Made by a program: the position numbers and the translations under genes
Notes under the pieces: model-generated
The model's database searches: none
Seen by the model: the letters and a program-made list of their open reading frames with translations, nothing else
What the model was told of the DNA's origin: nothing
Shown: piece by piece, positions 3,713 to 62,550 of the stretch
Layout: every line of letters begins with the position of its first letter
How positions within the stretch are numbered: position 1 is the stretch's first letter
DNA from: Bacilli bacterium
Lineage (GTDB): Bacteria > Bacillota_I > Bacilli_A > RF39 > UBA660
NCBI GenBank assembly: GCA_030602345.1
Contig: JAUVZX010000001.1
Location: 131,251 to 195,250 of the forward strand
DNA length: 64,000 nt
Reading direction: 5' to 3'

Positions 3713-4144
3713 TTATCTTATATAATGATTGTTTAATTCCTCATTCATCTTAGAATGATATATGTCATTCATTTCTTTCAAAAGGTTCTCTAGAACTTGT
3801 TCTTTATTTTTTATTTCAAAACCTTTTTTCATTTTAAATTGCAAACTCTCAAATCTCATAACCATTAAATCATATCGTTCTTTTTCTGCAAGCTCTGTTG
3901 GTGACAAATCTTTTCTTAAATATTCTTGTCCCAAAATAGAAACTAAAGCTGAAAACTCTAAACTTAGTAATTCAAACAAAACTTTTTCTTTTTTTTCTTG
4001 TTCTAAATAATCTATTTCAATTGTATTATCTACTATATGATTCAAAAACTCATGATTTTTTAAATTGCCTCCAAAAGTAAGATTTGATAAAGAGTTGCTC
4101 AAATCTATGTATTCATTTTTATATCTTAAACTTAATCTTTCCAT
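3713..4144 (-). CDS. Hypothetical cytoplasmic protein
   Basis: 143 aa ORF with no recognisable motif. Confidence 0.4.
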   Translation of the reverse strand: MERLSLRYKNEYIDLSNSLSNLTFGGNLKNHEFLNHIVDNTIEIDYLEQEKKEKVLFELLSLEFSALVSILGQEYLRKDLSPTELAEKERYDLMVMRFESLQFKMKKGFEIKNKEQVLENLLKEMNDIYHSKMNEELNNHYIR

Positions 4145-7600: not shown

Positions 7601-7960
7601 TTAGTTAACTGTAACTTTATAAACATGTCGATTATTTTCTAAAGTAATCGTAATAAAAGTATCATTAGAAAACCTTTGTTTAGTCTTAGGATTAATTAAT
7701 TCTCGTTTAATATATCCTCCATTTTTTAGTTCTTCTAATGAAACAATATAACTTTGACCATTTATTCTAGGTAAGTTTTCAGGATAATCAACTTCCCAAT
7801 TTTTAACTGCACTTACCATTAATTTAATTTGAACTTCATATGCACTGTCTGCAGAACCTTTAATATAACGATCAATCGATGGAATAACAATCGCCGACAC
7901 TAGTGCTAAAACGACAATAACTGCCAATATTTCCATTAAAGTAAATCCTTTATTTTTCAT
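7601..7960 (-). CDS. Type IV pilin / competence pseudopilin ComGC-like
   Basis: MKNKGFTLMEILAVIVVLALV has a class III signal (G|FTLxE, Glu+5). At 119 aa it is ComGC/major-pilin sized. Confidence 0.75.
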   Translation of the reverse strand: MKNKGFTLMEILAVIVVLALVSAIVIPSIDRYIKGSADSAYEVQIKLMVSAVKNWEVDYPENLPRINGQSYIVSLEELKNGGYIKRELINPKTKQRFSNDTFITITLENNRHVYKVTVN

Positions 7961-10652: not shown

Positions 10653-12488
10653 TTAAAAACCTCCACCAGAACCACCGAAGCCTCCGCCTCCGCCTCCTGA
10701 AGAAAAACCTCCACCAGAACCCGAAGCAGATGCTCTTACAGCATGCTGAGCACTACTAATCGAATTAGTTAAACTAGTTGAAATAGCATGATTAACCATC
10801 ATTGTCGTTCTAAAACGATTAAACTCTGGTCCCATCGAACTATTATTAGGCATTTCTTGAATTCTTACTTTCATTACTTTTTCTAACTTAGTAGCAAGAC
10901 CAAATGCCATAGCATAAACCATATATTTACCCCAAAGTTCGATATGGGGCAATTCTTTCGTTTCAAAAGTACCAAAATCATCAATATAATTTTTTACAGC
11001 ACTCCACTTCAAGAACATCTCATCTCCTAAAGGAGTCACAGGCTTACTATATTTAGACATATATGCATAAAATAATATAGTTACAACAATATTACTTACC
11101 ATCACAATAAGTCCTAGTAATCCCATGAAAGCCCATAAGAATACAACTGCAAATATAGTCAATATTAAAAGGGTATCTGCTGCTCTAATTCTTACAAACT
11201 GTAAAGATGTATATCCTTTTTTAATTGTTTCTTGTTTAGATAATTTCTCCCACTCCGCATATTCTTTCATGAATTTTGAAGGAGATTTCTTTGAATAATC
11301 CACAATTTGTTTCATGGTAACAGTATAATTTGATCCTATTTTAGAAAATAATATTTCAATTAATTTCCTCTCTGGAGCAGTTACACTTTCATATGGAAAA
11401 GCATTTAATCTAAACTCAACATCATTTTTAGTTATCGTACTATAATCAATAAATTTTCTTTCAATCAAATACATTAAAGATGCTGAGAAATAATTAGCAT
11501 TAAATACTCCTGGCATAATATTTCCAATTACTTCTGGACCATCTAAACTTGGAAAATCTCTTAGATATTTATGAGGAAAAACTTTATTTTTTTCTTTTCT
11601 TTCTTTAACATACTTATCAAAAAAATAAATATTAAAAGACGTAAGAATAATCATTCCTATTGTTGCTACTACTCCCAAGCCTTTAGAAAAAGCAATCTCT
11701 TGGTTTCTTCTATTAGCATAAATTTCTTCCACTTCTTTAATCTTAGTATAAGCATCATCTATATTAGTTTTAGTAGTCGCCAAACTAACATCAGAAGGAT
11801 CAATAACTACTCTTGCAGATATACCTCTGTTAGAAGGAACACTACTCATTGTAAAAGTAGCAACATTACCACTTTTACCATATTCTCCTCCAATAGGTCC
11901 TCTTGCAAAAACACCAATTATATCACTTTTAGTATATACTCTAGCTTCAAAATCTCTAACCATTGTATTAAATCCATTTTCATGCAATCTAATATATACT
12001 TCTGCTACATCATTATGGACTCTAACAGCACCAATAACTTTATACTCAAAATAATATGCTCTTAAAGAACCCCCAGAAGGTGAAAACACTCTCATTTCAA
12101 AGTTTTTTCCATCATCAGTAACAGTATATATACCACTATCTCCTGGTATGGCACCATATTCTACATATTGAAAAAAGGAATTAAAACGATCTATTAAATC
12201 ATATCCTAACTCTAAATTTTGATTAGTACTACCTGCTCTTAAAGGAACTATTTTAGTTGGAACATAAGATAAATCATCATCAAATGAGTTATTGTTGAAG
12301 AAAAAAGCTCTATCTAAGTAAGCATCATTCATAAAATAACCATTTTCAGGATTAGCAATTACTACTTTTTTAACAATAATATCGCCATTTTCTAATATTT
12401 CATATTTTTGATATATACCATCTACTCTCATCCCAAAAACAAAAACTGGAAACAAGAATAAAATAACCATAAATATAAGTTTTTTCAT
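10653..12488 (-). CDS. DUF2207 family membrane protein with Gly-rich C-tail
   Basis: Signal peptide MKKLIFMVILFLFPVFVFG starts at 12488 (the ORF-track start at 12590 would overlap LemA). It has a large extracellular domain, TM helices and a C-terminal GSGGGFSSGGGGGGFGGSGGGF tail. Pairing with LemA is typical of this family. Confidence 0.7.
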   Translation of the reverse strand: MKKLIFMVILFLFPVFVFGMRVDGIYQKYEILENGDIIVKKVVIANPENGYFMNDAYLDRAFFFNNNSFDDDLSYVPTKIVPLRAGSTNQNLELGYDLIDRFNSFFQYVEYGAIPGDSGIYTVTDDGKNFEMRVFSPSGGSLRAYYFEYKVIGAVRVHNDVAEVYIRLHENGFNTMVRDFEARVYTKSDIIGVFARGPIGGEYGKSGNVATFTMSSVPSNRGISARVVIDPSDVSLATTKTNIDDAYTKIKEVEEIYANRRNQEIAFSKGLGVVATIGMIILTSFNIYFFDKYVKERKEKNKVFPHKYLRDFPSLDGPEVIGNIMPGVFNANYFSASLMYLIERKFIDYSTITKNDVEFRLNAFPYESVTAPERKLIEILFSKIGSNYTVTMKQIVDYSKKSPSKFMKEYAEWEKLSKQETIKKGYTSLQFVRIRAADTLLILTIFAVVFLWAFMGLLGLIVMVSNIVVTILFYAYMSKYSKPVTPLGDEMFLKWSAVKNYIDDFGTFETKELPHIELWGKYMVYAMAFGLATKLEKVMKVRIQEMPNNSSMGPEFNRFRTTMMVNHAISTSLTNSISSAQHAVRASASGSGGGFSSGGGGGGFGGSGGGF

Positions 12489-12525
12489 AGTTTCTCCTTT
12501 TAAAAAAGACTTATTAAAAATAAGT

Positions 12526-13077
12526 CTAAAATTTAACTTGTGGTGCAACTTTTTCGTTTTCTGTTGCTTCAAAGAAAGGCATATTTTCAAACTTAAACAT
12601 TGAAGCTACAATGTTACTCGGGAAAACTTGCATTAAATTTCTATATTGTAAAACAGCATCATTATAAAATTGTCTTGCATAAGATATTTTATCTTCTGTT
12701 TCTTTTAAATTAGCTTGTAAATCTAAAAAGTTAGTATTTGCTTTTAAATCTGGATAAGCTTCTGCTAAAGCAAATAATCTTCCTAAAGTCGCTGTTAATT
12801 CACCATTTGCTTGCATTTCTGCTTCTGCAGATGGTGCACTTACCACACGATTACGCGCTGTAATAACTGCATCAAATGTTTCTTTTTCATGAGATGCATA
12901 ACCTTTTACTGTTTCTACTAAATTAGGGATTAAGTCAGCACGTCTTTTTAAAAATACGTCTACCTGAGCCCATTGATCTTGTGTCATATTTCTTCTTTGA
13001 ATTAATTTGTTATATGTTGAAGCAACATACATAGCAATTAATCCTACTATTACTAATAAAATTATTAAAAATTCCAT
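12526..13077 (-). CDS. lemA: LemA family protein
   Basis: 183 aa with an N-terminal TM helix and conserved LemA core (…ARQFYNDAVLQYRN…). Confidence 0.85.
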   Translation of the reverse strand: MEFLIILLVIVGLIAMYVASTYNKLIQRRNMTQDQWAQVDVFLKRRADLIPNLVETVKGYASHEKETFDAVITARNRVVSAPSAEAEMQANGELTATLGRLFALAEAYPDLKANTNFLDLQANLKETEDKISYARQFYNDAVLQYRNLMQVFPSNIVASMFKFENMPFFEATENEKVAPQVKF

Positions 13078-13135
13078 ATATCCTCCTAATTAAATACTAT
13101 ATTATTTATTATAAATTGTCAATAAAAACCAAATA

Positions 13136-14971
13136 CTAGAAACCTCCACCTGAGCCTCCAAAGCCACCTTTTCCGCCCCCAGAAGATAACCCACCTCCAG
13201 AACCAGAAGATGAAGCTTTTCTTCCCATGCGTGATGTTCTAATTGAACGACTAACGCTATTAGATAAAGTTTGATTTATTATCATTGTTACTCTTAAATG
13301 ATTTAAGTTGGCCGTTAATAAACTTCTATTTGGTATTTCTTCTATTTTTATGTTCATTGCTCTTTCTAATTTTGTAGCAAGACCAAATGCCGTGGCATAA
13401 ACTATATATTTACCCCAAAGCTCTATTTGAGGCAATTCTTTAGTTTCAAAATTACCAAAATCATCAATATAATTTTTTAAAGCACTCCATTTAAGAGCCG
13501 TCTCATGGCCTAAATCAGTAGTTGGCCTACTATGAATTGTAATATAATAACTTATCATGGCATAGGCTAAAATATTACCCAAAACTAAACCATAACTAAT
13601 AAAATTATAGTAATTAAAACCTAAAGCAGCAATAAACATAATAATAATCACTAAACCATTAAAACTTGATAAAGATGGTTTTCTTTTAGCTAAATACTTC
13701 TTCTGATATGCTTCTTTTCTACTTAATTCTTCCCATAGTTTATATTCCTTAGCAAATTCCTCTTTATTGTTTTTAGAGTATTTTTCAACTTGTTTCATTG
13801 AAACAGTTAAATTGGTCCCTATTTTATAGAAAAATATTTCGATTAATTTTCTTTCTGCTTCAGTTATTTTTTCATAAGGAACTTTATTTAATATAAGCAC
13901 AACATCATTTTTATCTATTTCACTATAACTTGCATATTTTTTTTCAACTAAATTCATTAATGCTGCCGAAAAATAATTACCATTAAATTGACCAGGCATA
14001 ATATGACCTACTACCTCTGGACCATCTAAACTTGGAAAATCCCTTAAATACTTATGAGGAAAAACTTTATTTTTTTCTTTTAATTTTTCTTCAAATTTAA
14101 AATAATAATATATTTGAGACACAATAGATAAAACCAAAGTAAAGTTCACTAACATATTAAAATAATTAAATGCTCTTAACTCTGCATTTCTTTGATCAGC
14201 ATATCCCTTTTCCACCAATACAATTTGTGGATAAGCTTCATCAAAATTTGTTTTTATATTAGCTAAACTAACATCAGAAGGATCAATTACAACTCTTGCA
14301 GAAATACCTGATAAAGCAGGAATATTTCTCATTTTAAAAGTAGCAACATTACCATTTTTATTATAGTCTCCACCAATCGGTCCTCTTCCAAAAACTCCTA
14401 TAATATCACTCTTTGTATAAATTCTTGCTTCAAATTTTCTAACATTATAATTAAATTCACTATCATGCAATCTAATAAATACTTCTGCTACATCATTGTG
14501 GACTCTAACGGCATCATAAACAATATATTCAAAATAATATGCTCTTAAAAATCCATTTGAAGGAGCAAATACATTTATTTCAAAAGTATTTTCCATCATT
14601 AGTACATTAAATTTACCAGTTTCACCTTTTTGAATTAATTCTACAACTCTTTCATAAAATTCATCAAATGAATCAATCAAGTCATAACCAGACATTAAAT
14701 TTTTACTAGTACTACCTGCTCTTATGACTTCGAATCCCGTTGGAGCATAAGCTAGATCATTATCAAAAGAACTCAAAGTAAACACTAGTGGGCTTTTTGA
14801 AATACTATCGTCCATATAATACCCATTTTCAGGATTAGCGATAACTACTTTCTTAACTAAAACATTACCATTTTCAAGTATTTCATATTTTTGATATATG
14901 CTATCTACTCTCATCCCCAAAACAAAAGAAGGTAATAAAAATAATATAATTGTAAACAAAACTTTTTTCAT
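13136..14971 (-). CDS. DUF2207 family membrane protein, paralog 2
   Basis: 611 aa. It has the same architecture as 10653..12488 (signal peptide MKKVLFTIILFLLPSFVLG, conserved blocks RAYYFEY…VRVHNDVAEV…, and a C-terminal SGGGKGGFGGSGGGF tail). Confidence 0.7.
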   Translation of the reverse strand: MKKVLFTIILFLLPSFVLGMRVDSIYQKYEILENGNVLVKKVVIANPENGYYMDDSISKSPLVFTLSSFDNDLAYAPTGFEVIRAGSTSKNLMSGYDLIDSFDEFYERVVELIQKGETGKFNVLMMENTFEINVFAPSNGFLRAYYFEYIVYDAVRVHNDVAEVFIRLHDSEFNYNVRKFEARIYTKSDIIGVFGRGPIGGDYNKNGNVATFKMRNIPALSGISARVVIDPSDVSLANIKTNFDEAYPQIVLVEKGYADQRNAELRAFNYFNMLVNFTLVLSIVSQIYYYFKFEEKLKEKNKVFPHKYLRDFPSLDGPEVVGHIMPGQFNGNYFSAALMNLVEKKYASYSEIDKNDVVLILNKVPYEKITEAERKLIEIFFYKIGTNLTVSMKQVEKYSKNNKEEFAKEYKLWEELSRKEAYQKKYLAKRKPSLSSFNGLVIIIMFIAALGFNYYNFISYGLVLGNILAYAMISYYITIHSRPTTDLGHETALKWSALKNYIDDFGNFETKELPQIELWGKYIVYATAFGLATKLERAMNIKIEEIPNRSLLTANLNHLRVTMIINQTLSNSVSRSIRTSRMGRKASSSGSGGGLSSGGGKGGFGGSGGGF

Positions 14972-15017: not shown

Positions 15018-16517
15018 TTATCTATTAGAAATGGTTAATCTAAATCCCATAGTAGAAGAATCAATACCTGAAGACGAAGTATAACTAAAAATACTTGCTG
15101 TTGACGAAGTAGCAGAACCTCCTCTTTCTAACCAAGGGTTAGATAAATCAACAAAATTAGAAGTTCCACTATACCAACCAGCTGTCTCTGCTAAAGCATG
15201 ACCTGTACAAGGTAAATTAAAACATGCCGTTAAAGGAGATAAAGTTGTGTAATGATTATAATATTTTTCATCAGGGAATGATGAAAAACCTGAGTTACCA
15301 TTAGTTCTTCTATAATTACCCATTACAAACTCACTTACACCACCAGCCATATCATATACTCCATATACATTACCAGTCGTACTTGCTCTTTGACCATTTG
15401 TCGTAGTATATGCGTTAGCACATCCCGCTACTGCAGCAGCTGTAACACTATTTCCTGCACACCCCGTTATATACGTATTACTATTATTTTTCCAAATTTG
15501 AACACCACTACCATATTGACTAGCAGCTAAGTAAGATACTGCACCCCATTCACTATTTTTAGCCATTCTTGCTTCAAAAATTGATTTAGAAATACCAAAC
15601 TCATTATTATCACCTGAAACGACATCTAAGTTAGCAAACAATAATAAAGGTTGAACGCTTCTTAAAGCTGAAATACTAGGCTTAATTCTAAGATTAGTTA
15701 AAGTTCCTCCAGTTTCAAACTTACCAAACCAAAAACCAGTTAACTCACGATTGCCATAAGTAAAGGCAGGATGCGTAATATAAGAAGCTCCCACTCCTGT
15801 CCCAGTCGCTCTTTCATAAAGACCTTCTTCAAAGTTAACGACTATATTATTAACACCTGAAACACCATAATTAAATCTTGGAATCCACACTAAATACATT
15901 AAAATATCAACTTCCCTAACTTCAATACCTAAAGCAGCATCTGACTCATAATATTCTCTTGTTCTAGTACCCACTTCTTTAACTAAAGCAACATTAGCCC
16001 ACATTCTATTAGTATAATCATACCATTTAGCAGAACTAGGATTACGATAATCTGCCTTAACCCATTTAGTACCATCCCATCTAATAGGAATCAATCCCTT
16101 AGATAAAACAGGTTCAGAAGCTAACGAAGTGTCACTATTAAAAACACAAGCCTCTTCCTTAACAATTATTCTTTTCTCATCATATATTTTAGTTGCACAC
16201 CAATCTTTATATTGAATAATAGCAGAAATTCTTCCATCCTCATCCAACTTAACAATTCCTGTACCATTAATCGGAGTCTCTAAATCAATATTAGGCTCTA
16301 TTACACCATTAACAATATTATAAACACGATTTATATTAAAACCACTACTAGCCTTATCCATATCAACTGCCTTAATCAAAGCTGCTACACTATCTTCAAA
16401 AGCTCCCTTTTCAGAACTCTTTAAAACATTACCTATTGTAGGAGCAGTAATCAAACTAACAATTGCAATAATAGCAATAACTGCCAATAACTCAATTAAT
16501 GTAAAACCTTTTTTCAT
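15018..16517 (-). CDS. Modular type IV pilin-like protein with C-terminal FGE-sulfatase (SUMF1-like) domain
   Basis: N-terminus MKKGFTLIELLAVIAIIAIV is a class III signal. The C-terminal 250 aa carry FGE-family motifs (…KNSEWGAVSYLAASQYG…, GVYDMAGGVSEFVMGNY, ERGGSATSS resembling RGGSW). Confidence 0.6.
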   Translation of the reverse strand: MKKGFTLIELLAVIAIIAIVSLITAPTIGNVLKSSEKGAFEDSVAALIKAVDMDKASSGFNINRVYNIVNGVIEPNIDLETPINGTGIVKLDEDGRISAIIQYKDWCATKIYDEKRIIVKEEACVFNSDTSLASEPVLSKGLIPIRWDGTKWVKADYRNPSSAKWYDYTNRMWANVALVKEVGTRTREYYESDAALGIEVREVDILMYLVWIPRFNYGVSGVNNIVVNFEEGLYERATGTGVGASYITHPAFTYGNRELTGFWFGKFETGGTLTNLRIKPSISALRSVQPLLLFANLDVVSGDNNEFGISKSIFEARMAKNSEWGAVSYLAASQYGSGVQIWKNNSNTYITGCAGNSVTAAAVAGCANAYTTTNGQRASTTGNVYGVYDMAGGVSEFVMGNYRRTNGNSGFSSFPDEKYYNHYTTLSPLTACFNLPCTGHALAETAGWYSGTSNFVDLSNPWLERGGSATSSTASIFSYTSSSGIDSSTMGFRLTISNR

Positions 16518-16564
16518 ATAATCACCTACTTTAATTATAACACAAAAAAAGGATTAAAATAATC

Positions 16565-17590
16565 CTAAAATGTTTGCCAACCTCCTGCAGTAAAGTAACT
16601 TGGTGCCCCAGAGTTATTTATCCACACTCTATTTATAATTTCATCCATTTGTTCTTTTGTTGGTTCATTTCCTGTACCAAATGCTTCTGTTAAATTCATG
16701 AACATAACCGCCTTAACTGTTGCATAAGCATTTCCGTTCAAATAAGCACCGGCATGCGAAAAATTAAGTTGAATCCTGAATGAAGTTGCTGTAGAAGCTC
16801 TAGAGTCACTCGCATTTACTACATAAGAGTTCTTACCAATTAAAATGTTGTCGCCACCATACGAAACGTATGTTGGATGAACAGAAGACAATTGAAAAGT
16901 AGGAGTGTAAATATTATGACCTTCTAAAAAATCAATATTAACATAGTATCTATTATTAAGTATGGGCAAAACACTAAAATTATATATCAATCTAAACGTA
17001 CTGTGTACGTCACCACTATATAATCTTTGATATCGATTACTAGTTATTACTTCGGATAGCAAAGTATTTTCACGTCCCCAACCGGTAGCCAATATATCAT
17101 TACCTGCACTAAAATCACCATTGATTACTAAATTATTAAATGGTGCGTTTACTTGTGAATAATATATATTACTTACACATTCACTCTCGCTCATCTTACT
17201 TACTACTATCTCTTCGCTACTTCTATCCTTAACTGAACAATGGACTCCATCATATAAAGCTAACTTTATACTTCCGTCTTCAAATATATGAATTCCTCCT
17301 GATTTAGGATTATTTCCATTAAAGACTATGTCTTTATCATTAGGATATACTGTTTTATCACCTTCATTAAATAATACAAATATTGGTACATTTCCATTTC
17401 CTGTCTTATCTAATACATATAAGTTTTCACTAGCCTTAATTAATCCTTGTGTTGATGATCTAAAACTTCTTTCTTGTGCTGTTTCTATCATATTAAGTGC
17501 ATTTGGCACTGTAATTAATGCAATGATTGCTAGTACTACCATTACTACTAATAATTCTATTAATGTAAATCCTTTTTTCTTCTTTTTCAT
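16565..17590 (-). CDS. Pilin-like surface protein, variable paralog A
   Basis: MKKKKKGFTLIELLVVMVVLAIIALITVPNAL is a class III signal. The first ~150 aa and the last ~35 aa are conserved with the two neighbouring paralogs, and the centre is divergent. Confidence 0.65.
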   Translation of the reverse strand: MKKKKKGFTLIELLVVMVVLAIIALITVPNALNMIETAQERSFRSSTQGLIKASENLYVLDKTGNGNVPIFVLFNEGDKTVYPNDKDIVFNGNNPKSGGIHIFEDGSIKLALYDGVHCSVKDRSSEEIVVSKMSESECVSNIYYSQVNAPFNNLVINGDFSAGNDILATGWGRENTLLSEVITSNRYQRLYSGDVHSTFRLIYNFSVLPILNNRYYVNIDFLEGHNIYTPTFQLSSVHPTYVSYGGDNILIGKNSYVVNASDSRASTATSFRIQLNFSHAGAYLNGNAYATVKAVMFMNLTEAFGTGNEPTKEQMDEIINRVWINNSGAPSYFTAGGWQTF

Positions 17591-17641
17591 ATACCCCTAC
17601 CTTATTAAAAGTATAACAAAAAAAGAATTGTTATTCAATTC

Positions 17642-18562
17642 TTAAAATGTTTTCCATCCTCCTGCGGTAAAGTAATTTGGTATACCTAAATTATTTATCC
17701 ACACTCTGTCTAATTGCCCTTCACTAGGATTGATCCACCCCTCTAAAATGATTACATTTGCTAACATATTACCCTGAACCGAAATGTTTGTTTGCAACCA
17801 TATACTACCTAAAGAATCCGAAGGTAATGGATTTTGAGCTACCGCTTGTGCATAATATAGTCCTGTTGCCCCCGTATTTATTGTAACTTGAGGTATTAAT
17901 AAATCAAACCTAGAATCAGTTCTTAATATCGCCGGCATATTAAAATTGTTTTCTAGAATATCTAAAATAACTGTGTACTCCCCTCCTGCAATTGGTCTCC
18001 ACTGAAATCTATTTAATATCCTATCCCAAACTCCACCATTAAAGCGAATGTTTTCACCAACTTTTGAAGAATTAGAAAAAACCATTGTACTATGATTATA
18101 TAAATTATTAAAAGGTGCACTTACTTGTGAATAGTATATATTACTTATACATTCACTATCACTCATCTTACTTAGTATTATATCTTCACTACTTCTATTT
18201 TTAACTGAACAATATACTCCATCATATAATGCCAACTTTATACTTCCATCTTCAAATATGTGGATTCCTCCTGATTTGGGATTACTTCCACTAAATATGA
18301 TATCTCTATCATTTGGATATACTGTTTTTTCTCCTTCATTAAATAATACAAATACTGGTACGTTTCCATTTCCTGTCTTATCTAATACATATAAGTTTTC
18401 ACTAGCTTTAATCAATCCCTTTGTTGATGATCTAAAACTTCTTTCTTGAGCTGTTTCTATCATATTAAGTGCATTGGGCACTGTGATTAATGCTATTATT
18501 GCTAGTACTACCATTACTACTAATAACTCTATTAATGTAAATCCTTTTTTCTTCTTTTTCAT
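17642..18562 (-). CDS. Pilin-like surface protein, variable paralog B
   Basis: Same N-terminus as paralog A, nearly identical at the nucleotide level, with the conserved C-terminal …RVWINNLGIPNYFTAGGWKTF. Confidence 0.65.
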   Translation of the reverse strand: MKKKKKGFTLIELLVVMVVLAIIALITVPNALNMIETAQERSFRSSTKGLIKASENLYVLDKTGNGNVPVFVLFNEGEKTVYPNDRDIIFSGSNPKSGGIHIFEDGSIKLALYDGVYCSVKNRSSEDIILSKMSDSECISNIYYSQVSAPFNNLYNHSTMVFSNSSKVGENIRFNGGVWDRILNRFQWRPIAGGEYTVILDILENNFNMPAILRTDSRFDLLIPQVTINTGATGLYYAQAVAQNPLPSDSLGSIWLQTNISVQGNMLANVIILEGWINPSEGQLDRVWINNLGIPNYFTAGGWKTF

Positions 18563-18613
18563 ATACCCCTACCTTATTAAAAGTATAACAAAAAAAGGAT
18601 TGCTATTCAATCC

Positions 18614-19594
18614 TTAGAATGTTTTCCAACCTCCTGCAGTAAAGTAATGTACTACTCCAGAACCATTGATCCATACTCTATTTATGATTTCATCCATCTC
18701 TTCTTTTGTTGGTTCATTACCTGCTCCATATAAAGATGTTAAATCAAGCGTTATAGCTTTTTTTATTTCCATTATTTTCCCGTTCGCTTCAGATGCACTT
18801 GAATAAGATTGAACAATTATATTATAAGATGATACAGTTGCAGTCGCCGTTCTATTGGTAGAAAATACATACCATTTGCCAATTATAGAATTATATACGT
18901 TTACATCACTATTTGTAACATTAAATGATCTTTGTCTTAAAAAATCCGGGTTTCCATTAATTATTCTTGCTTCCCAATTATAATAATATACATTATTTAA
19001 TACGATATTTATAGATCTTCCAACGTATGATTGATTCCCAACTCCATTACCAGTAAGTCTTAAGACTCTCCCAACTACTTCTTGAGTAGAGTTACTTGCA
19101 ATCCACCCAGATGTTCCATTACTAAAGTCTCCATTGGTTATCAAATTATTAAATGGTGCACTTGTTTGTTCATAATATATATTTGATAAACAAATATTCT
19201 CACTTATCTTACTTATTGTTATTTCTTCGCTTGTTCTATTCTTTATTGAACAATATGTTCCATCATATAAAGCTAGTTTTATACTTCCGTCTTCAAATAT
19301 ATGGATTCCTCCTGATTCAGGATTACTTCCATTAAACATGATGTCTTTAGTATTTGGATATACTGTTTTTATTCCATTTTCAAACAAGATAAAGACTGGT
19401 ACATTTCCATTTCCTGTCTTATCTAATACATATAGGTTTTCACTAGCCTTAATTAATCCTTGTGTTGATGATCTAAAACTTCTTTCTTGAGCTGTTTCTA
19501 TCATATTAAGTGCATTTGGCACTGTAATTAATGCTATTATCGCTAGCACTACCATTACTACTAATAACTCTATTAATGTAAATCCCTTTTTCAT
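18614..19594 (-). CDS. Pilin-like surface protein, variable paralog C
   Basis: Same N-terminal 150 aa block and C-terminal …RVWINGSGVVHYFTAGGWKTF, with a divergent centre. Confidence 0.65.
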   Translation of the reverse strand: MKKGFTLIELLVVMVVLAIIALITVPNALNMIETAQERSFRSSTQGLIKASENLYVLDKTGNGNVPVFILFENGIKTVYPNTKDIMFNGSNPESGGIHIFEDGSIKLALYDGTYCSIKNRTSEEITISKISENICLSNIYYEQTSAPFNNLITNGDFSNGTSGWIASNSTQEVVGRVLRLTGNGVGNQSYVGRSINIVLNNVYYYNWEARIINGNPDFLRQRSFNVTNSDVNVYNSIIGKWYVFSTNRTATATVSSYNIIVQSYSSASEANGKIMEIKKAITLDLTSLYGAGNEPTKEEMDEIINRVWINGSGVVHYFTAGGWKTF

Positions 19595-19647
19595 ATACCC
19601 CTACCTTATTAAAAGTATAACAAAAAAAGAATTGTTATTCAATTCTT

Positions 19648-20619
19648 TTAAATTAGGTGTTTTCTAGTAAAGACTCCAACATGATCTATAGTATAAACAC
19701 ATATTTTAGCTATTCCTGTTACTTTAATAAATCCTAAGCCTGATATGACTATGTCTTCATTATTTACTTCTAAGCATAGTTCTTTCATGTGATAAGTATC
19801 TGGTTTTTTGTATAATCTTTTTATTTTTAAGTTATTACTTATAAATAAATTAATATCTACTTTTTCACACTCAATCATTACTAAGTTTTCAATTACAAAA
19901 TATTGTTTTTCTTTTACCTGATATGTAATTGGTCTTACTGTATTACTAGGTATTATTTTTTTTAATGTTTTAATGTCGATATAGTTTTCTATATCATCAT
20001 AGTCTAGTAATCCTGGAGTATCATTTAAAATTAATTCTTCATTTAATTTTACTTGAATTAAATCTAGAGTAGTTGCTGCAATCATGCTAGTAGTTACTTC
20101 ATAATTTTCATCACTATAATTATAAACTAGTTTATTTATTAGAGTACTTTTACCAGCATTTGTATATCCAACTATATAAACATTTTTACTCTTTTTATGA
20201 TTGTTGATTGCTTCATATAGTTGATCAAAGTTAGTATTTTTTTTACTACTTACTAATACTATTTCTTTAAAATAATTATCAAAGTATTCAATAAATTTTT
20301 GATCATATATATCTTTAGCAAATAAATCTCTTTTGTTTAAAACTAATATTTTATCATTTTTAATTGATGATACTAATTTTTCTAAGTCTCTTGGAATATT
20401 AAATAAGTCAACTACTATTAAGACTAAGTCATTACTAATATCTATTTTTTTTAGAATCGATAATAATTCTTCATCACTTTTTATTCCTGGTGTATATTCA
20501 CTATAATGTTTTATTCTAAAGCATCTTTCACAAAGGTTACTGTTTTCTTTGAAAAAACCAAAGTTTTCTTTTGATTCTTGTTGTAACAATGCTCCACATC
20601 CTGGACATTTATTATTCAT
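19648..20619 (-). CDS. yqeH: Ribosome biogenesis GTPase YqeH
   Basis: N-terminal Zn-ribbon CPGCG…CERCF and a circularly permuted GTPase (…GYTNAGKSTLINKL…DTPG). Confidence 0.85.
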   Translation of the reverse strand: MNNKCPGCGALLQQESKENFGFFKENSNLCERCFRIKHYSEYTPGIKSDEELLSILKKIDISNDLVLIVVDLFNIPRDLEKLVSSIKNDKILVLNKRDLFAKDIYDQKFIEYFDNYFKEIVLVSSKKNTNFDQLYEAINNHKKSKNVYIVGYTNAGKSTLINKLVYNYSDENYEVTTSMIAATTLDLIQVKLNEELILNDTPGLLDYDDIENYIDIKTLKKIIPSNTVRPITYQVKEKQYFVIENLVMIECEKVDINLFISNNLKIKRLYKKPDTYHMKELCLEVNNEDIVISGLGFIKVTGIAKICVYTIDHVGVFTRKHLI

Positions 20620-21191: not shown

Positions 21192-21830
21192 TTATTTAAC
21201 CTTGTTTTTGTTTAAATTAGTACTATTTTCTAATTCTTTGATATAAAATTCATTTATTGAAGAATAATCTTTAAAATTAATAGCACTTCTCAAAGCTTCT
21301 ATATATTCTTCTCTTTTTTCATTTAGATTAATATTTAACATAGGTAATTTAGCTTTACTAAAATATATATTCATAAAAGCTTGGGTAATTCTTTTATTAC
21401 CATCCATGAAAGGGTGGCATCTAAATATATCGACTGATAATTTGATTACTTCTTCAATATAAAGTTCTATATCATTTATTTCTTTTTTAAATAGTTCCAT
21501 TGCTCTTTTATTTAAATCATTGTTTAAATAAGAAGTTATTTCTCTATAATCTAATAAATCAATATCTAAGTCTTGTAAGTATGATGGTGCTGTTCGATAG
21601 CTATAGTCCACATTACTATTATAGAATTTATATAATCTTTTATGTAATAGTCCTAAAGTAAAAATACTTAAATTATTATAATTATGTTTTTGTAAAACAA
21701 AATCATACATATTTAGTTGGCCTTGATATTCTTCATGATTTGCATATGTTAAATCATTTAAAGATAATAAATAATCTTCTTTATAGCTCTCATAATTAAC
21801 TGTTTCTTGAAAGTTTTTTATTAATTCCAT
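21192..21830 (-). CDS. Fic/DOC family protein with degenerate active-site motif
   Basis: HPFMDGNKRITQAF matches the Fic motif HPFx(D/E)GNGRxxR, but with G to K and the final R to Q. Confidence 0.65.
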   Translation of the reverse strand: MELIKNFQETVNYESYKEDYLLSLNDLTYANHEEYQGQLNMYDFVLQKHNYNNLSIFTLGLLHKRLYKFYNSNVDYSYRTAPSYLQDLDIDLLDYREITSYLNNDLNKRAMELFKKEINDIELYIEEVIKLSVDIFRCHPFMDGNKRITQAFMNIYFSKAKLPMLNINLNEKREEYIEALRSAINFKDYSSINEFYIKELENSTNLNKNKVK

Positions 21831-26779: not shown

Positions 26780-27088
26780 CTATCTATTGATGGTTGAAGC
26801 TACACATGTATCAGTATCAAAAACTACTGAAACAAAAGAATAATTTCCTTTGTAATCTAAATCTGCAGCAACTACTGGACTAGTAACTGTTGCGCCTGGA
26901 CTTAAAGTTTTTTGTTCTAAACAATAAACTTCTGCAGCTCTTCTAATTCCATCTTCTGATCTAGCATCTGCTCTTTCTTGTGCAGTTGTAATCATCGCAA
27001 GTGCATTTGGTACTGTAATTAACGCAATGATTGCTAATATAACGATAACTACTAATAATTCTATTAGTGTAAATCCTTTTTTATTCAT
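26780..27088 (-). CDS. Type IV major pilin-like protein (ComGC-sized), paralog 1
   Basis: MNKKGFTLIELLVVIVILAIIALITVPNALAMI is a class III signal. 102 aa. Confidence 0.75.
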   Translation of the reverse strand: MNKKGFTLIELLVVIVILAIIALITVPNALAMITTAQERADARSEDGIRRAAEVYCLEQKTLSPGATVTSPVVAADLDYKGNYSFVSVVFDTDTCVASTINR

Positions 27089-27117
27089 ATTATATTTTCT
27101 CCTTTATTTTTTTGAGT

Positions 27118-27459
27118 TTATGGCATTGTTGTTAATGCTGTCGCTGTACATGAAGCATTAAACGAAAAACCAACTACAGGAAAACCATCAGCAGTTTTCA
27201 ATGTTGTACCGGTTTTAATTAGAGTCCCTAATCCTGCAACAGTAACTGGCCCTGGAGTAGCGAAGGTTGCTGATCCTGTTTTTTCTCTCATACAATAAAC
27301 TTCTGCAGCTCTTAATGCACCTTCTAATGATCTAGCATCTGCTCTTTCTTGAGAAGTTGCAATCATTGCTAATGCATTAGGCACTGTGATTAATGCGATG
27401 ATTGCTAAAATAACGATAACAACCAATAATTCGATTAATGTGAAACCTTTTTTGTTCAT
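27118..27459 (-). CDS. Type IV major pilin-like protein, paralog 2
   Basis: Same conserved N-terminal ~55 aa and a divergent C-terminal half. 113 aa. Confidence 0.75.
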   Translation of the reverse strand: MNKKGFTLIELLVVIVILAIIALITVPNALAMIATSQERADARSLEGALRAAEVYCMREKTGSATFATPGPVTVAGLGTLIKTGTTLKTADGFPVVGFSFNASCTATALTTMP

Positions 27460-27595
27460 TTTTTTCCCTATCCTTTCTATGTTTTAAATATATCATTTTA
27501 GGGGGTGCTAGTCAAGAGTAATTTTGTAAAAGTATGGGCAAAAAACGGATAGGCATTATAATATAAGGTTTATATTTATGTAAACTTTTTTTGTT

Positions 27596-27922
27596 TTATT
27601 CTGGTATTACGAAATTAGGTGCACATGTATCTTGATTGAATTCTATATGGTCTTGTCCATCAAGATGATCTGGTACTGCTTTTATAAAATTAGGAACTAA
27701 ATTGTTCATGCTTACTGCGATAATCGGTGCGGTACCTTTTAGTTTTTCAGTCATGCAATATAATTCCGCGGCTCTTAAGATTCCGTCTTCAGATCTTGCA
27801 TTTGCTCTTTCTTGAGCTGTTGCAATCATTGCTAATGCATTTGGTACTGTGATAAGAGCTATGATTGCCAATATAACGATAACTACTAGTAATTCTATTA
27901 GCGTAAATCCTTTGTTTTTCAT
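27596..27922 (-). CDS. Type IV major pilin-like protein, paralog 3
   Basis: MKNKGFTLIELLVVIVILAIIALITVPNALAMIATAQER. 108 aa with a divergent C-terminus. Confidence 0.75.
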   Translation of the reverse strand: MKNKGFTLIELLVVIVILAIIALITVPNALAMIATAQERANARSEDGILRAAELYCMTEKLKGTAPIIAVSMNNLVPNFIKAVPDHLDGQDHIEFNQDTCAPNFVIPE

Positions 27923-51779: not shown

Positions 51780-53975
51780 CTATTCTTCATCATCACTAAA
51801 GAAATCATCAAAGAATTGATCATCCGTTATTTTGAATGGCTTTTTCTCTGGTATAACTTTATCTTCTACCTTAATCGGTGTTTCTATTTTTGGTTCTACT
51901 CTAATATCTCTAGCTAAATCAACCATTTTTGTTTCCTTCAACGGTGTTCCTGATACCTCAAACTCATTTGGAACAATAAATTTAGGTTTAACTTCTTCCA
52001 CAACTGTTTTTTCTTCTATCATTGGCTCTGGAGCAACAAATTTTCTTTCTTCCATTATTGGTCTATCCTCAATGATTGATTGAGTGATAGTTTCAGGTTG
52101 TTGGAAAACAGTTCCACCATTTTCTTCCTCAGCCTCTTCGGCTGCTGCTATTCTAGCATCAATTCTTTTCATAATTGCATCTATATCAATTCCTGAGTCA
52201 AATGATGACATTGAATCAGCCTGACTATCAAAGAAGTTAGGAGCACCAAATGGTTTTTCCTTAGGTTTAGATTGATTTCTATTATCGACAAATTCTTTCA
52301 AATTAAATAATTTAAGAGGTCTAATTTCCCTTGGAGTAAACTCTGCTTTAGGGTATTTTTTACCCCAATTCATTTTATAATTAAATTCTAATTTAGTTTT
52401 AAATGGAGCTTTTCTAGTTCTTAAGATAACTGCCTCTCCCATTTTTAATTGTTGTAAATCACTTACAGTAATTAAAGGCGTTGAAGCTGTTTTATCTTTT
52501 TCTTTAGATTTCTTTTCTCCAGCCATTTTACTTATTTCTTCTAAAGCTGAAAGTTCACTACTAATTAAGTAAACTATGTTACCACAGTTACCCTTAATAG
52601 TTTCTCCATTTTCTTTACCATAAACTTGATAAAGCTGTGAATAGTTTTGAATAATAAATGTCATTCTAATCAATCTAGAACGAGCTGCTGTAACCATTGT
52701 AGTAACATCCTTTAAAGGAGGCATATTTGCAAACTCATCTAAAATGAAGTTAGTACGATATTTTAATTTACCATCTGGATTTTCTTGAGCAACATCGATT
52801 AACGATTCATAACATTGTTTAATAAATGTTGTAACTAAAGGATGGAGTGTTTTCTTCTCATCTTGCACAATCAAGAAAACTGCTGTTTTTTGTCTTCCAA
52901 TTCCCTTCATATTAATGTCATTATATGCTAACATTTCTGAAATATTTTCTCTTGCTGCAAATAATTTGATCTTTTGATAGAAAACAGCAAATATACTATT
53001 TTTAGTTTCCGCTGCTGCAACCAAAACACTCGCTAAGTTAACATAAGCGGGACTAGATGGATCTTTAGTTGAAAAATACTCTTTCAAGTAAGTTCCACTT
53101 CTAAATCTTTCTTCTCCTAAAGCACTCATTAAATTAATACTATTAATATTTATTTGTTCTTCAGTAGCATCTTCGAATAACGCTAATGCTAATCCAACAA
53201 AGTAATTAGCTGCTGTTTTTTCCCAGAAATCATCTGCTTTATTTTTTTCATCATATAAGATATTAATGGCTAAATCATCTAAAAGTTCAATTGCTTTGTC
53301 CTTATCACCACTTTTATATAATTCATAAGGAAGAATCAATGGATTCCATGCGGAACCTTTTTGTGGCTCACGAAAGTTTAGAACAATAACATTATATCCT
53401 CTTTTTCTAAGTTCAACAGCATTATCGCGGTAAATTTCACCTTTAGGATCGGTGATAATCATTGATTCCCCTTTCTTAGCTAAAAGCTTAACTAAAGGCA
53501 AAACGACTAATTGAGTTTTACCACTACCAGTAGAACCGATGACTAAGTTATGATATTCACCATTGTCTACCCATAACTCTTTACCATCATTAATAAGAGG
53601 AATTCCCGCTGCAGTTGTAACTTCTTCAGAGGGCAAAACTCTTGATAATTCTTTCTTCATATCTTTGTTTTTAGAAAAAGTGTTATATCCACCTTTATCT
53701 TTTTTACCAAAAGTGAATCCAAATCCTTCTTCCATTTCGAAAAACATAGACGATCCTTGAGTAAGAATCAATCCTAAAGAAAGTAAATAAAGAGATATAG
53801 TTGGCCATATAAATTCATCTGTAAAAACTTTTAATGGATTAAATCCATGAAGCGTTGTATCGCTAGCAAATTGAAATAAATTCAACACAACTAACGACAC
53901 TAAATAAAACATTACAATCAATAGAATTATAAATGCCCATAAATGTTTAGCCTCTGCCTTAATTCTTAATTTCAT
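51780..53975 (-). CDS. Type IV secretion coupling protein (VirD4/TraG/TraD family T4CP)
   Basis: Two N-terminal TM helices, Walker A VIGSTGSGKTQ and TraG-family blocks (…ITDPKGE…, …FILDEFAN…). Extended acidic C-terminal tail. Confidence 0.85.
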   Translation of the reverse strand: MKLRIKAEAKHLWAFIILLIVMFYLVSLVVLNLFQFASDTTLHGFNPLKVFTDEFIWPTISLYLLSLGLILTQGSSMFFEMEEGFGFTFGKKDKGGYNTFSKNKDMKKELSRVLPSEEVTTAAGIPLINDGKELWVDNGEYHNLVIGSTGSGKTQLVVLPLVKLLAKKGESMIITDPKGEIYRDNAVELRKRGYNVIVLNFREPQKGSAWNPLILPYELYKSGDKDKAIELLDDLAINILYDEKNKADDFWEKTAANYFVGLALALFEDATEEQININSINLMSALGEERFRSGTYLKEYFSTKDPSSPAYVNLASVLVAAAETKNSIFAVFYQKIKLFAARENISEMLAYNDINMKGIGRQKTAVFLIVQDEKKTLHPLVTTFIKQCYESLIDVAQENPDGKLKYRTNFILDEFANMPPLKDVTTMVTAARSRLIRMTFIIQNYSQLYQVYGKENGETIKGNCGNIVYLISSELSALEEISKMAGEKKSKEKDKTASTPLITVSDLQQLKMGEAVILRTRKAPFKTKLEFNYKMNWGKKYPKAEFTPREIRPLKLFNLKEFVDNRNQSKPKEKPFGAPNFFDSQADSMSSFDSGIDIDAIMKRIDARIAAAEEAEEENGGTVFQQPETITQSIIEDRPIMEERKFVAPEPMIEEKTVVEEVKPKFIVPNEFEVSGTPLKETKMVDLARDIRVEPKIETPIKVEDKVIPEKKPFKITDDQFFDDFFSDDEE

Positions 53976-53983
53976 ATGACCTC

Positions 53984-54634
53984 CTATATAAATTTTTTAT
54001 TCTTTTGTTTTATTGTTAAATATATACCAACAATCAATAACATTATTGGTCCGAAAACTAATGCTAATACAACCATAAAGTTATCAAAAATTGAAGTACT
54101 TGCACTAGCACTAGTTAAATCAAGTTCAAAACTAATTGGTTTATTATTACTTAATTTCAATTCCCATATATGAACATTATTATCACTTTTATCAGCATTA
54201 CTATTTTCTATTTCAAATGGTGACTTAATAATTAGTTTTAAATTATCTACTTCACCAAAACACTCGAAGTTACCATTAGTGTTGAATATTACCTTATCAT
54301 CTTTCTTTTCAATAGTTGTTTTACTATAACAACTAGTAACAAATGGAGTCCAAGCTAAATATTCATCATAACTAGATTTATTATTAAATTTTAATCCTGA
54401 TAAAGTATCACCTATAACTTTTTCTTTAGAATATACATACATCGGATTAGTTATCTCATCATTCATCCAAATTATAAATTGGAGTTCTGATTCTAAATCT
54501 TCGCCGATTAATTCATTTTCCTCTAAAACAGTTATATTTTCATCGATAAAATTACCATCAATAGTTACTTCATAAGTAACGCTACATCCAGTCAAAAGAA
54601 ACATAAACATTAAAATTAGTAGTTTCTTTACCAT
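53984..54634 (-). CDS. Conjugation-associated lipoprotein, hypothetical
   Basis: Lipobox LLTGC (MVKKLLILMFMFLLTGCSV) and a C-terminal TM helix, translationally coupled between the hydrolase and the T4CP. Confidence 0.5.
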   Translation of the reverse strand: MVKKLLILMFMFLLTGCSVTYEVTIDGNFIDENITVLEENELIGEDLESELQFIIWMNDEITNPMYVYSKEKVIGDTLSGLKFNNKSSYDEYLAWTPFVTSCYSKTTIEKKDDKVIFNTNGNFECFGEVDNLKLIIKSPFEIENSNADKSDNNVHIWELKLSNNKPISFELDLTSASASTSIFDNFMVVLALVFGPIMLLIVGIYLTIKQKNKKFI

Positions 54635-56202
54635 CTTCCACCACTACACACATTTCTTGCTTGTATACATACATTGGCATCTTCTCTATAAGGAGTGCAA
54701 CCCTTAGCATATAAAAACTCTTCAGGATTATATGTTTGTTTTTTACCACTTAATAATTCAAAATGTAAGTGGGTCGCTGATGAGCAACCAGTATCTCCCA
54801 TGACACCAATAAACTCGCCTGATGCTACTGTAGAACCAATCATTAAATTAGGCGCCACTGAATCTAAATGGACATATTTAGAATAAAATTTTTCTACTTT
54901 TCCATCTATCATAATTTCATGTTCTAATGTTACTATTCCTGCAGGACATTGAGAATAAAAACATATTGGTTTTCTAGTCCATACTGGTCTACAATTAATT
55001 CCACTGCGGTTAATTGCAACTACTTTTCCTGGAGCAACCGCATAAAGAAGAGGCTTACCACCATTGTTTCCTATATCAACACCAGCATGCGAATTACAAT
55101 TATTTGGTCCATAAAAACCAAAACATCCCGTCTGCCTACAAGGTTGAGTCCCTAAAGGACTAACTAATATATCTAACATTTCTTGAGGTATTGCTCCTGC
55201 TTTACCTGAACCAGAAATTGTTTCACCCTGTAAATAAGTTATATCTTGAACAGCAAAAGCATTTCTAATTGAATAAACCTCTTCAATAACACTATCAAAG
55301 AAAGCTCCTTGCCCTTCGTTAGGAATGGCAACATCTATGCTCCTTAATTTATCTTCAATATAATTTTCTTTTATCCATTTATCATATTCAGCCTTTGTTT
55401 TCAACATGTAAACATCTTCTTCTGATACGGTAAAACTCATTGTTTTAGTTAATAAACATCCCTTGTCATCTTTTGCACATACTGTCTTATCTTCAAAAGA
55501 CTGTGGCTTATCTATTTTAAAACAAACATTGTTACATGTAGAATCACTTCCACAAACTTTAGAATCGTTTTCTTTAGTTGTCGTTGTTGAATCACAATCA
55601 CCAAATCCTTGAACTATAACTTGCCCGCTAGGTAATGTTTCAGTAATTAATTGACATTGATTTTTACGTATAACTGTTGTTTCAGTACAAGTATAAATCA
55701 TATTTTTATAAATCATATTATCGATTAATTCTACAGCTTCTTTTTCTAACGCCTTATAATTTAATTTTTTTTCTTCAAAACAATCTTCTAACTCTTCCTG
55801 AGTACATTCAATATTGGCAGCATCAGGATCACCATAGTATATGAATGCTAATACTAGGTTCATGTCTACCGCTACTCCACGGTCTTCCCAATATTCTTTT
55901 CTTTCTTCTAAAACATCAACAAAAGCTTGCAATTCAGGACTTCTGATTTCTTTACCACTTTCGTCTAATCTAGAGTTATTACCTCCAAAGAAAGACATAA
56001 ACGGTGCTAAAACAACTGCTAAAATTATAATTACTGCAAATAAAGGAATTAATATAGGGATTGCTGAAACAAAAGCAGTTGCTAACCACATTTTAAATTT
56101 CGATTTTATTGCACCACCAAGAAAACTGGTGACACCACCAGCTTGATCGACTTGATTCAAAGTATTTTTAAAGTTTTTGAGCCCGTTTAAAAAGTTTTTC
56201 AA
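54628..56202 (-). CDS. Membrane-anchored M23 peptidase (T4SS cell-wall hydrolase, CwlT/TcpG analog)
   Basis: N-terminal TM helix, a Cys-rich middle region and a C-terminal M23 domain with HxxxD (HAGVDIG) and HxH (THLHFE) motifs. Confidence 0.75.
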   Translation of the reverse strand: MKNFLNGLKNFKNTLNQVDQAGGVTSFLGGAIKSKFKMWLATAFVSAIPILIPLFAVIIILAVVLAPFMSFFGGNNSRLDESGKEIRSPELQAFVDVLEERKEYWEDRGVAVDMNLVLAFIYYGDPDAANIECTQEELEDCFEEKKLNYKALEKEAVELIDNMIYKNMIYTCTETTVIRKNQCQLITETLPSGQVIVQGFGDCDSTTTTKENDSKVCGSDSTCNNVCFKIDKPQSFEDKTVCAKDDKGCLLTKTMSFTVSEEDVYMLKTKAEYDKWIKENYIEDKLRSIDVAIPNEGQGAFFDSVIEEVYSIRNAFAVQDITYLQGETISGSGKAGAIPQEMLDILVSPLGTQPCRQTGCFGFYGPNNCNSHAGVDIGNNGGKPLLYAVAPGKVVAINRSGINCRPVWTRKPICFYSQCPAGIVTLEHEIMIDGKVEKFYSKYVHLDSVAPNLMIGSTVASGEFIGVMGDTGCSSATHLHFELLSGKKQTYNPEEFLYAKGCTPYREDANVCIQARNVCSGGRW

Positions 56203-56223
56203 AAAATCACGTCCTTATTTCTT

Positions 56224-58844: not shown

Positions 58845-58875
58845 TTTTTTACCACCTTTTATTCTTTCTTTTTAG

Positions 58876-62449: not shown

Positions 62450-62480
62450 TATAATTTCAACCTCTTATTTCTAAATACAA

Positions 62481-62495: not shown

Positions 62496-62550
62496 AACAC
62501 AAAAAAAAGCGATAATAAACAAGTTTATATCACTTTAGCTTTTATTTATA

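Follow-up and report, generated by a model that had tools for sequence, protein, structure and literature searches.

A tandem array of probable modular type IV pilin genes with alternative head domains in a Bacilli bacterium

The acquisition of many functions by simple filaments has been attributed to modular pilins, and we know of no account of how new modular-pilin architectures originate. Here, we describe three tandem prepilin genes (referred to as A, B and C) that occupy positions 16518-19650 of a 64-kb stretch of DNA, hereafter ‘the window’, from a Bacilli bacterium (contig JAUVZX010000001.1, positions 131,251 to 195,250; all coordinates below are those of the window). The explanation that we favour, and to which we would give a probability of roughly 0.7, is that these paralogous genes make up an array of modular type IV pilins with alternative ‘heads’. 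The protein type is already known and expected, and this is not a new system; the array organisation is modestly new, in its two-sided frame round the head, its phage-type head, an unannotated second head type, and the replacement of heads at the level of strains.

Modular pilins are widespread, and two of them, PilC (with a lectin module) and PilB (with a vWA module) of Streptococcus sanguinis, are adhesins (Raynaud 2021, PMC8179133; Shahin 2023, PMC9934059). The lectin-bearing PilC is the closest characterised analogue (PMC9934059): its host is also a monoderm member of the Bacillota, a predicted β-sandwich module of the lectin or carbohydrate-binding module (CBM) type is found here too, and in both cases small major pilins are encoded separately. 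Unlike those of S. sanguinis, however, the modules described here carry no Pfam or InterPro signature, one type is common with phage virion proteins, and a conserved tail of ~25 amino acids follows the module; the genes are paralogs arranged in tandem, at a distance from any pil operon, and their modules would be interchangeable.

Two other systems invite comparison on account of their variability. The pilE/pilS loci of Neisseria likewise combine conserved 5′ and variable 3′ pilin parts, in multiple copies whose blocks of homology permit gene conversion; there, one gene is expressed, the silent copies are promoterless and 5′-truncated, initiation is at a G-quadruplex (G4)-dependent site, and the variation falls inside the pilin fold, whereas here each copy is complete and carries a predicted promoter, the window yielded no G4 motif, and the varying part is an added domain. 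The R64/IncI1 shufflon, which encodes the PilV tip adhesins, also joins a constant pilin part to alternative C-terminal segments that set binding specificity, but does so through the Rci recombinase and inverted sfx repeats, which swap segments behind a single promoter; in our array the repeats are direct, the neighbouring genes that were scanned hold no recombinase domain, and each variant is a separate gene. A fourth likeness is to the distal β-sandwich domains of phage receptor-binding and tail-fibre proteins (CBM_4_9-like, ‘NGDF...GW ... FGAGNEPT’), to which the heads of A and C are 25-41% identical over their full length, with both motif ends kept; here, though, the domain follows a pilin module rather than a fibre shaft, and bears the additional ...YFTAGGWxTF tail. 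A paper on the pilins of TANB77 was considered as a further comparison, and set aside because it concerns small pilins of a different clade.

Common ends and different centres

All three genes lie on the minus strand, and are transcribed in the order C (18614-19594, 326 amino acids), B (17642-18562, 306 amino acids) and A (16565-17590, 341 amino acids); each is a complete open reading frame (ORF). Alignment and sliding identities divide them into three zones. The 5′ block, comprising ~57 nucleotides (nt) upstream and the first ~460 nt of coding sequence, is 85-98% identical, with the segment encoding the pilin module at 85-91%, which equates to protein identities over 150 residues of 90% for A-B and 84% for A-C. 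Directly past the motif APFNNL, at about codon 155, nucleotide identity falls sharply to 20-50%, and the centres reach just 48-59% under forced global alignment, i.e. they are essentially unrelated at this level. Identity then climbs back over the last ~70-130 nt, with the tail segment at 79-83%. An independent repeat search recovered the same pattern, in the form of three families, one of 300 nt at 82-89%, one of 62 nt in the spacer at 95-100%, and one of 92 nt at the 3′ end at 72-76%; direct-repeat families D3 and D5 cover the conserved 5′ block, with D5 including the unit upstream of C.

Much of the preliminary description of this DNA is borne out by these comparisons: three tandem pilin-like genes of the lengths given are present as ORFs with matches to PF07963 and TIGR02532, the nucleotide alignment locates a breakpoint after APFNNL and a recovery at the 3′ end, and the divergence is a mosaic rather than uniform along the genes. 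Other parts need qualification. The first ~150 codons do form a conserved block, but ‘near-identical’ overstates the case, at 84-90% protein identity; the conserved last ~35 residues hold for A and C, with B sharing only its last ~21-28; and ‘unrelated’ is right for the centre of B but not for those of A and C, which are homologous (30% identity, E = 6e-7).

The mosaic extends to synonymous sites. By the Nei-Gojobori method, synonymous divergence (dS) among the three genes is 0.34-0.40 in the pilin module (0.18-0.28 over its first 62 codons, where the nonsynonymous value, dN, is ~0) and 0.45-0.75 in the tail, while the centre is saturated, with a proportion of synonymous differences (pS) of 0.66-0.74. 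As constraint at the level of the protein cannot keep synonymous sites alike, the history of the ends must differ from that of the centre, and the difference between the pilin module and the saturated centre argues for recombination, not protein-level constraint alone.

The N-terminal part of each protein has the hallmarks of a prepilin. A leader and motif of the form MKK(KKK)G/FTLIELLVVMVVLAIIALITVP is present in 3/3 genes (MKKG/FTLIE in C; the slash separates Gly-1 from Phe+1), with Gly-1, Phe+1, Glu+5 and leader length all canonical. All three proteins score above threshold for PF07963 (30.7-38.3 bits against a cut-off of 21.2) and for TIGR02532 (34 bits against 16.3), supporting their earlier designation as pilin-like, and the family profile aligns with the α1 region of solved pilins, including PilE1 of S. 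sanguinis. AlphaFold2 (AF2) models of A and B, with predicted local distance difference test (pLDDT) values of 69.4 and 70.6 respectively, assign a helix to residues 10-64 and, after it, 5-6 strands up to residue ~132, at a pLDDT of 85-95; a globular pilin fold, with a long α1 helix packed on an antiparallel β-sheet, is thus predicted for the module, which in C runs from residue 1 to ~150, ahead of the head and tail. Two invariant cysteines, C118 and C138, are seen within the module in the family alignment. In the models the linker at residues ~150-165 is of low confidence, and the C-terminal β-hairpin is better predicted than the all-β domain before it.

As judged by these motifs and profiles, we place A, B and C among the modular type IV pilins, as Raynaud et al. 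2021 use the term (PMC8179133); the modular class is appropriate because the heads also occur outside of type IV filament biology, that of A/C in phage-like non-pilin proteins and that of B in proteins with Flg_new repeats.

The A/C-type head starts with NL(I/V)xNGDFSxGxxGW and ends with (D/N)LTxxFGxGNEPTxxxMD; in C it spans NLITNGDFSNGTSGW ... LYGAGNEPTKEEMD, and resembles a CBM-like or phage-type β-sandwich. The same domain is found without a pilin part, in proteins of 170-320 amino acids, and non-pilin relatives match the PHROG tail fiber and minor tail families. It occurs in at least 83 viral contigs of IMG/VR, at 25-35% identity over the full domain; on an IMG/VR contig it sits between major-head and tail-spike genes, and on a 42-kb phage contig an SLT-domain gene lies downstream of it. 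PF02018 (CBM_4_9) is matched by P0104, which is distantly related in sequence. With the model of A as query, the best Foldseek matches are to CBM4 and other β-sandwich carbohydrate-binding modules (top structures 2c26 and 1gui, probability 1.0, but a template modelling score, TM, of only 0.27-0.42 for a model with a pLDDT of 50-65), with phage tail proteins also found at low TM. On these comparisons, the A/C head is a probable β-sandwich domain of a kind common in the structural-gene regions of phages.

The centre of B, an all-β domain at residues ~155-278, has no detectable sequence similarity to the centres of A or C. A word-indexed protein search with the B module gave no match, and an exhaustive HMMER search returned homologues at 33-46% identity: one protein of 4843 amino acids, two other prepilins, and several surface proteins with Listeria-Bacteroides (Flg_new) repeats. 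The possibility that B carries a degenerate A/C-type module was considered, on the strength of a faint likeness of N-P-S-E-G-Q-L-D to NEPTKEQMD, and dropped, as the A/C profile detects only the tail of B. By sequence comparison, the B head is a different, unannotated domain. Within the 158-residue query, the alignments to its homologues are confined to residues 5-130, and for this reason we assign the last ~28 residues (…RVWINNxGxPxYFTAGGWxTF) to the pilin-family part of the protein and not to the head.

This tail, with the motif (R/K)VWI...(Y/R)FTAGGWxx(F/Y), occupies the last ~21 codons of A (16568-16630), B (17645-17707) and C (18617-18679), all on the minus strand; that of C reads RVWINGSGVVHYFTAGGWKTF, and that of A ends ...GNEPTKEQMDEIINRVWINNSGAPSYFTAGGWQTF. 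It is retained in every member of the family, whatever the head, whereas non-pilin proteins with homologous heads lack it. The tail might fold back onto the pilin module as a return strand, offer a site of interaction, or be no more than a recombination arm.

The spacer unit ahead of each gene

A unit of 62 nt, 95-100% identical among the three copies, precedes each gene. On the gene strand it reads stop-AAG(A/G)ATTG-AATA(A/G)-CAAT(T/C)CTT-TTTTT-G-T-TATACT-TTTAATA-AGGTAGGGG-TAT-ATG, and the pattern AAGRATTG-N5-CAATYCTTTTTT occurs 3 times on that strand, against 0.02 expected by chance. The stem is of 8 bp with a loop of 5 nt and a U7 run, and overlaps the stop codon of the gene before it. A consensus scan finds in all three units a -35 box, TTGAAT, which lies inside of the hairpin, a 17-nt spacer and an extended -10, TG-n-TATACT; the ribosome-binding site (RBS), AGGTAGGGG, is 3 nt ahead of the ATG. 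The shared arrangement of hairpin, T-run, extended -10 and RBS had been recognised previously, and stands, with the proviso that the hairpin sequence then given was that of the plus strand.

Just past the yqeH stop, the unit upstream of C (19595-19647, minus strand, as are all of the units) has its hairpin at 19647-19627, a T-run extending to 19622, the -35 at 19642-19637, the TG-n-TATACT ending at 19614 and the RBS at 19606-19598. In the unit between C and B (18563-18615), the corresponding positions are 18615-18595 for the hairpin, 18610-18605 for the -35, 18582 for the end of the -10 and 18574-18566 for the RBS; in that between B and A (17591-17643), they are 17643-17623, 17638-17633, 17610 and 17602-17594. 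A variant form (16518-16566) separates A from the next prepilin gene, with the hairpin AGGATTA-TTT-TAATCCT at 16566-16550, a T7 run, TGTTATAAT (-10 at 16539-16534) and the RBS AGTAGGTGA; its fold is weak (z = -1.4), and TGTTATAAT is perfect.

In the three main units the stem-loop folds better than shuffled sequence (z = -2.1 to -3.8), and a scan for terminator consensus is passed only by the G-containing copy, between C and B. This copy has the AAGGATTG/CAATCCTT form of the hairpin, in which an A:U pair of the other two copies has become G:C by a compensatory change, and because of this we favour an RNA hairpin over a chance palindrome. An operator for a DNA-binding protein was also considered, given how strongly the hairpin is conserved in distant relatives, and was judged less likely, as two stem variants with compensatory changes exist in the one genome. 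Judged by these sequence features, every gene probably comes with a terminator and a promoter of its own.

The unit is conserved in contigs L082, L083 and L085-88 from relatives, although the proteins of L085 are only ~35% identical to A. In L085 itself, the hairpin-T7-GTTATA unit recurs almost unchanged (583-612, 1797-1826, 2831-2860 and 4045-4074), and is more conserved than the coding sequence.

A further feature is predicted for any read-through RNA (17591-17653 and 18563-18625, minus strand), in which UAUACUUUU, from the -10 region, would pair over 9 bp with GUAGGGGUA at the RBS. Transcripts from the unit's own promoter would be without the 5′ pairing arm, and read-through transcripts might translate poorly.

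Probable exchange of heads between strains, and alternative explanations

A sister strain provides a view of how the array changes. L082, a short-read Logan contig of 1.9 kb (SRR34579708), carries a yqeH that is 98.1% identical to that of the window, with a dS of 0.09, and on this basis is taken to belong to the same species. Where the window has three genes, L082 has yqeH, then a single gene, and then the spacer and the start of the 499-residue prepilin gene that follows A in the window. The single gene has the 5′ context of the C position, a B-type module, and the 3′ flank of A, this flank matching what follows A in the window at 98.1% identity. A-like and B-like sites are mixed, as in a patchwork, in the 5′ module of the gene. 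Its head is 78.4% identical to that of B, with a dS of 1.36 and a dN/dS of 0.08. Comparison across strains has thus turned up a variant that differs in copy number and is also chimeric and, as its module dS of 1.36 is set beside 0.09 for the flanking yqeH, we take the conserved ends to act as substrates for recombination.

In L083, from a more distant relative (yqeH dS of 1.26), a fourth type of head comes directly past yqeH, followed by another paralog, and related organisms have 4-8 tandem modular prepilin genes; the nearest genomes are metagenome-assembled genomes of uncultured ‘Bacilli’ or ‘Tenericutes’, many of them from gut samples, as far as can be told from a scan with the family alignment in which the generic GFTLIE motif dominated the matches and only distant pilins were returned. 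In L085 (1-4528), genes of 325, 385, 325, 385 and 325 amino acids follow one another, with identical 57-nt spacers; this pattern is either a genuine tandem repeat of higher order, with two genes to the unit, or the product of a contig cycling through a repeat. There are also signs of gene conversion in the sequences: a derived Asn codon (ALNMIETA) is found in all three paralogs of the window where L082 and both L083 genes have Ser, and genes 2 and 3 of L083 are 93.6% identical to one another but each ~81% to the window copies. Between close relatives, then, the number and alleles of heads differ within outer flanks that are nearly identical, with apparent points of exchange inside of the conserved 5′ and 3′ blocks, and exchange via the conserved ends over evolutionary time is supported by these sequences.

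Synthesising these findings, we propose a model for the array that we consider likely. Each gene encodes a class III (prepilin) signal peptide, a pilin module of ~150 residues, an all-β module of ~125-155 residues that is probably glycan- or ligand-binding, and a short, family-specific tail. After cleavage by a prepilin peptidase, the subunits would enter a type IV pilus or Com-like filament where, by analogy with other modular pilins, they may serve as low-abundance or tip subunits; the filament itself would probably be built from small pilins encoded 8 kb away, with the assembly genes lying outside of the window. As each subunit would show a different head, a cell would have three adhesin specificities, or four with the downstream gene. 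We suggest that each gene is its own transcription unit, with the AU-rich hairpin and U-run ending the upstream transcript and the hairpin also holding the -35 of the next promoter. The ~0.5-kb 5′ repeat (unit and pilin module) and the ~0.1-kb 3′ repeat (tail) would then be homology arms, kept alike among the paralogs by gene conversion; crossovers within them would delete, duplicate or replace whole modules, even by a non-homologous domain, such that strains of one species come to differ in the number and alleles of their heads. Within this scheme, the make-up of the domains, the synonymous-site mosaic, the difference between strains and the conservation of the unit are observed directly, while we infer incorporation into the filament, the binding of ligands, and the activities of the terminators and promoters from sequence and from analogy.

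Several observations weigh against this model, or parts of it. The β-sandwich parts of both AF2 models have a pLDDT of 50-65 and structural matches with a TM of only 0.2-0.55; a Pfam scan of the central modules of A, B and C gave nothing above threshold; and that the heads bind ligands is purely something that we infer. The hairpins are short, at 8 bp, AU-rich, and worth about -6 to -9 kcal/mol, and termination may be partial. A near-identical hairpin also lies in an unrelated ftsZ-spoIIGA spacer on a metagenome contig (L090, 1149-1178), the one match with the hairpin/T7/-10 pattern from a scan of such contigs, and because of this copy the unit is not specific to pilin arrays. The single-gene configuration is seen in a single contig, 1.9 kb long and assembled from short reads, and might conceivably stem from the path taken through a repeat graph. 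Finally, genes for PilB/ComGA, PilC/ComGB and the prepilin peptidase were not found in the 64-kb window.

The preliminary description had preferred a cassette system for antigenic variation, which would amount to programmed change within one genome of antigenic or receptor specificity, by frequent recombination among the copies or with silent ones, as in Neisseria pilE/pilS. There is material for such a process in the ~0.5-kb direct repeats at 85-91% identity and the conserved 3′ tails, and both the A/B patchwork of L082 and the shared derived codon show that conversion occurs. No copy, however, is less than full length, and each comes with a promoter, an RBS and a signal peptide of its own; shuffling among three expressed genes would leave the expressed repertoire unchanged. 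Neither tblastn nor blastn found a further copy of any module, truncated or silent, and hence none of the silent partial cassettes that had been envisaged, within the 64 kb searched, the contig being 221 kb or more in length. Both strands of the window are free of the G4 motif (G3N1-7)3G3, no recombinase domain was found in the neighbouring genes scanned (yqeH, yqeG, prepilin, DUF2207, LemA), and there is no inversion-type repeat: apart from the hairpins, the inverted repeats are short, AT-rich and ascribed to chance, and inversion of the shufflon kind was rejected. Phase variation by slippage was likewise rejected, since all copies, those of relatives included, have the T7 tract unchanged, and no homopolymer tract of 8 or more occurs in the array. 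Moreover, the dN/dS of 0.08 for the module indicates strong purifying selection and its dS of 1.36 an old, stably kept allele, and not rapid turnover. We therefore hold programmed variation to be quite improbable: the recombination through homologous flanks that was proposed fits as an evolutionary process acting between strains, and not as a programmed system, and the other suggestion made at the time, of three adhesins with different ligands, is the better-supported, the ligands themselves being conjectural.

A different doubt is whether these proteins are filament subunits at all. The prepilin N-terminus might be only a membrane anchor or export signal, and the pilin module a stalk, for displaying binding or enzymatic domains on a bacterium with a reduced genome; the window has at least 10 prepilin-type genes among housekeeping genes and no assembly genes nearby, and relatives fuse the same N-terminal module to Laminin_G_3, FN3, LRR/BspA, F5/8C and Flg_new domains. 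Against this, the canonical residues and leader length, a module of ~150 amino acids confidently predicted as an α1 helix with a β-sheet, and three small pilins (102-113 amino acids) 8 kb away, which share the same α1 sequence and are suited to be major subunits, all point towards a filament, and characterised modular pilins of such architecture are incorporated into pili (PMC8179133, PMC9934059); we regard the anchor-only explanation as unlikely. By far the least credible is a plain, recent tandem triplication, with centres diverging fast by point mutation under positive selection, without recombination, and ends alike through protein constraint only. The head-to-tail order and identical spacer units are what duplication yields, but the centre and the ends differ by a factor of at least 4 in synonymous divergence, the centre of B is a different domain family with homologues of its own elsewhere, and another strain has a B-type module at a dS of 1.36 within flanks that are 98% identical; this account is already contradicted by the data.

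If the array of modular pilins is correctly read, then the locus is a plausible route to new pilin architectures, by way of one scaffold, two-sided homology arms and a portable terminator-promoter unit; its heads come from two or more unrelated domain families, of which one is shared with phage virion proteins, and their number and alleles differ at the level of strains. It would also mean that uncultured, small-genome Bacilli of gut or wastewater invest heavily in binding domains displayed by prepilins, which bears upon attachment to hosts, food particles and other microbes. A bolder extension, tentative and in our view rather doubtful, is that the conserved pilin module and tail form a ‘docking frame’ into which heads are swapped by horizontal transfer, from strain to strain and perhaps also between phages and bacteria, so that the pili of these reduced-genome Bacilli come to be tipped with phage-type receptor-binding domains and the array is a locus of strain-variable specificity. 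Were that so, the heads might serve attachment to the surface glycans of other bacteria, in an episymbiotic or DNA-scavenging lifestyle, or else to host or dietary glycans, and the array would be comparable to a capsule or O-antigen locus.

Other prepilin genes and neighbours in the window

The window has a GC content of 28.9%, and its prepilin-type genes are scattered. Directly following A, behind the variant hairpin/T7/TGTTATAAT unit, is the fourth prepilin gene of the array (15018-16517, minus strand, 499 amino acids), which matches PF07963, has a different pilin module, and ends in an FGE-sulfatase-like domain that falls just short of threshold (PF03781, 23.0 bits against a cut-off of 23.3). 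The small prepilins form a tandem triplet of 102, 113 and 108 amino acids (26780-27922, minus strand); their first ~207 nt are 76-79% identical, their C-terminal halves diverge, and their α1 sequence is common with that of the modular pilins. Lying ~8 kb from the array, they are probably the major subunits of the filament that carries the modular pilins. Also on the minus strand are a Laminin_G_3 prepilin (28016-28966, 316 amino acids), a prepilin with CE2_N-like β-sandwiches (30311-32581, 756 amino acids) and a plain pilin (7601-7960, 119 amino acids).

Upstream of the array are yqeH and yqeG, and a protein with a Fic/DOC domain is encoded two genes upstream (21192-21830, minus strand), between a HAD-like gene and yqeG. 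Downstream (10653-14971, minus strand) is a DUF2207-LemA-DUF2207 set, in which paralogous DUF2207 membrane proteins of 645 and 611 amino acids flank LemA, both ending in the glycine-rich tail SGGGxGGFGGSGGGF. At the far end of the window (51780-64000, minus strand) is a conjugative type IV secretion block, with a VirD4/TraG-like coupling protein, a TraG/VirB4-like P-loop ATPase, an M23 peptidase and several large ORFs without a Pfam match, which is probably an integrated conjugative element.

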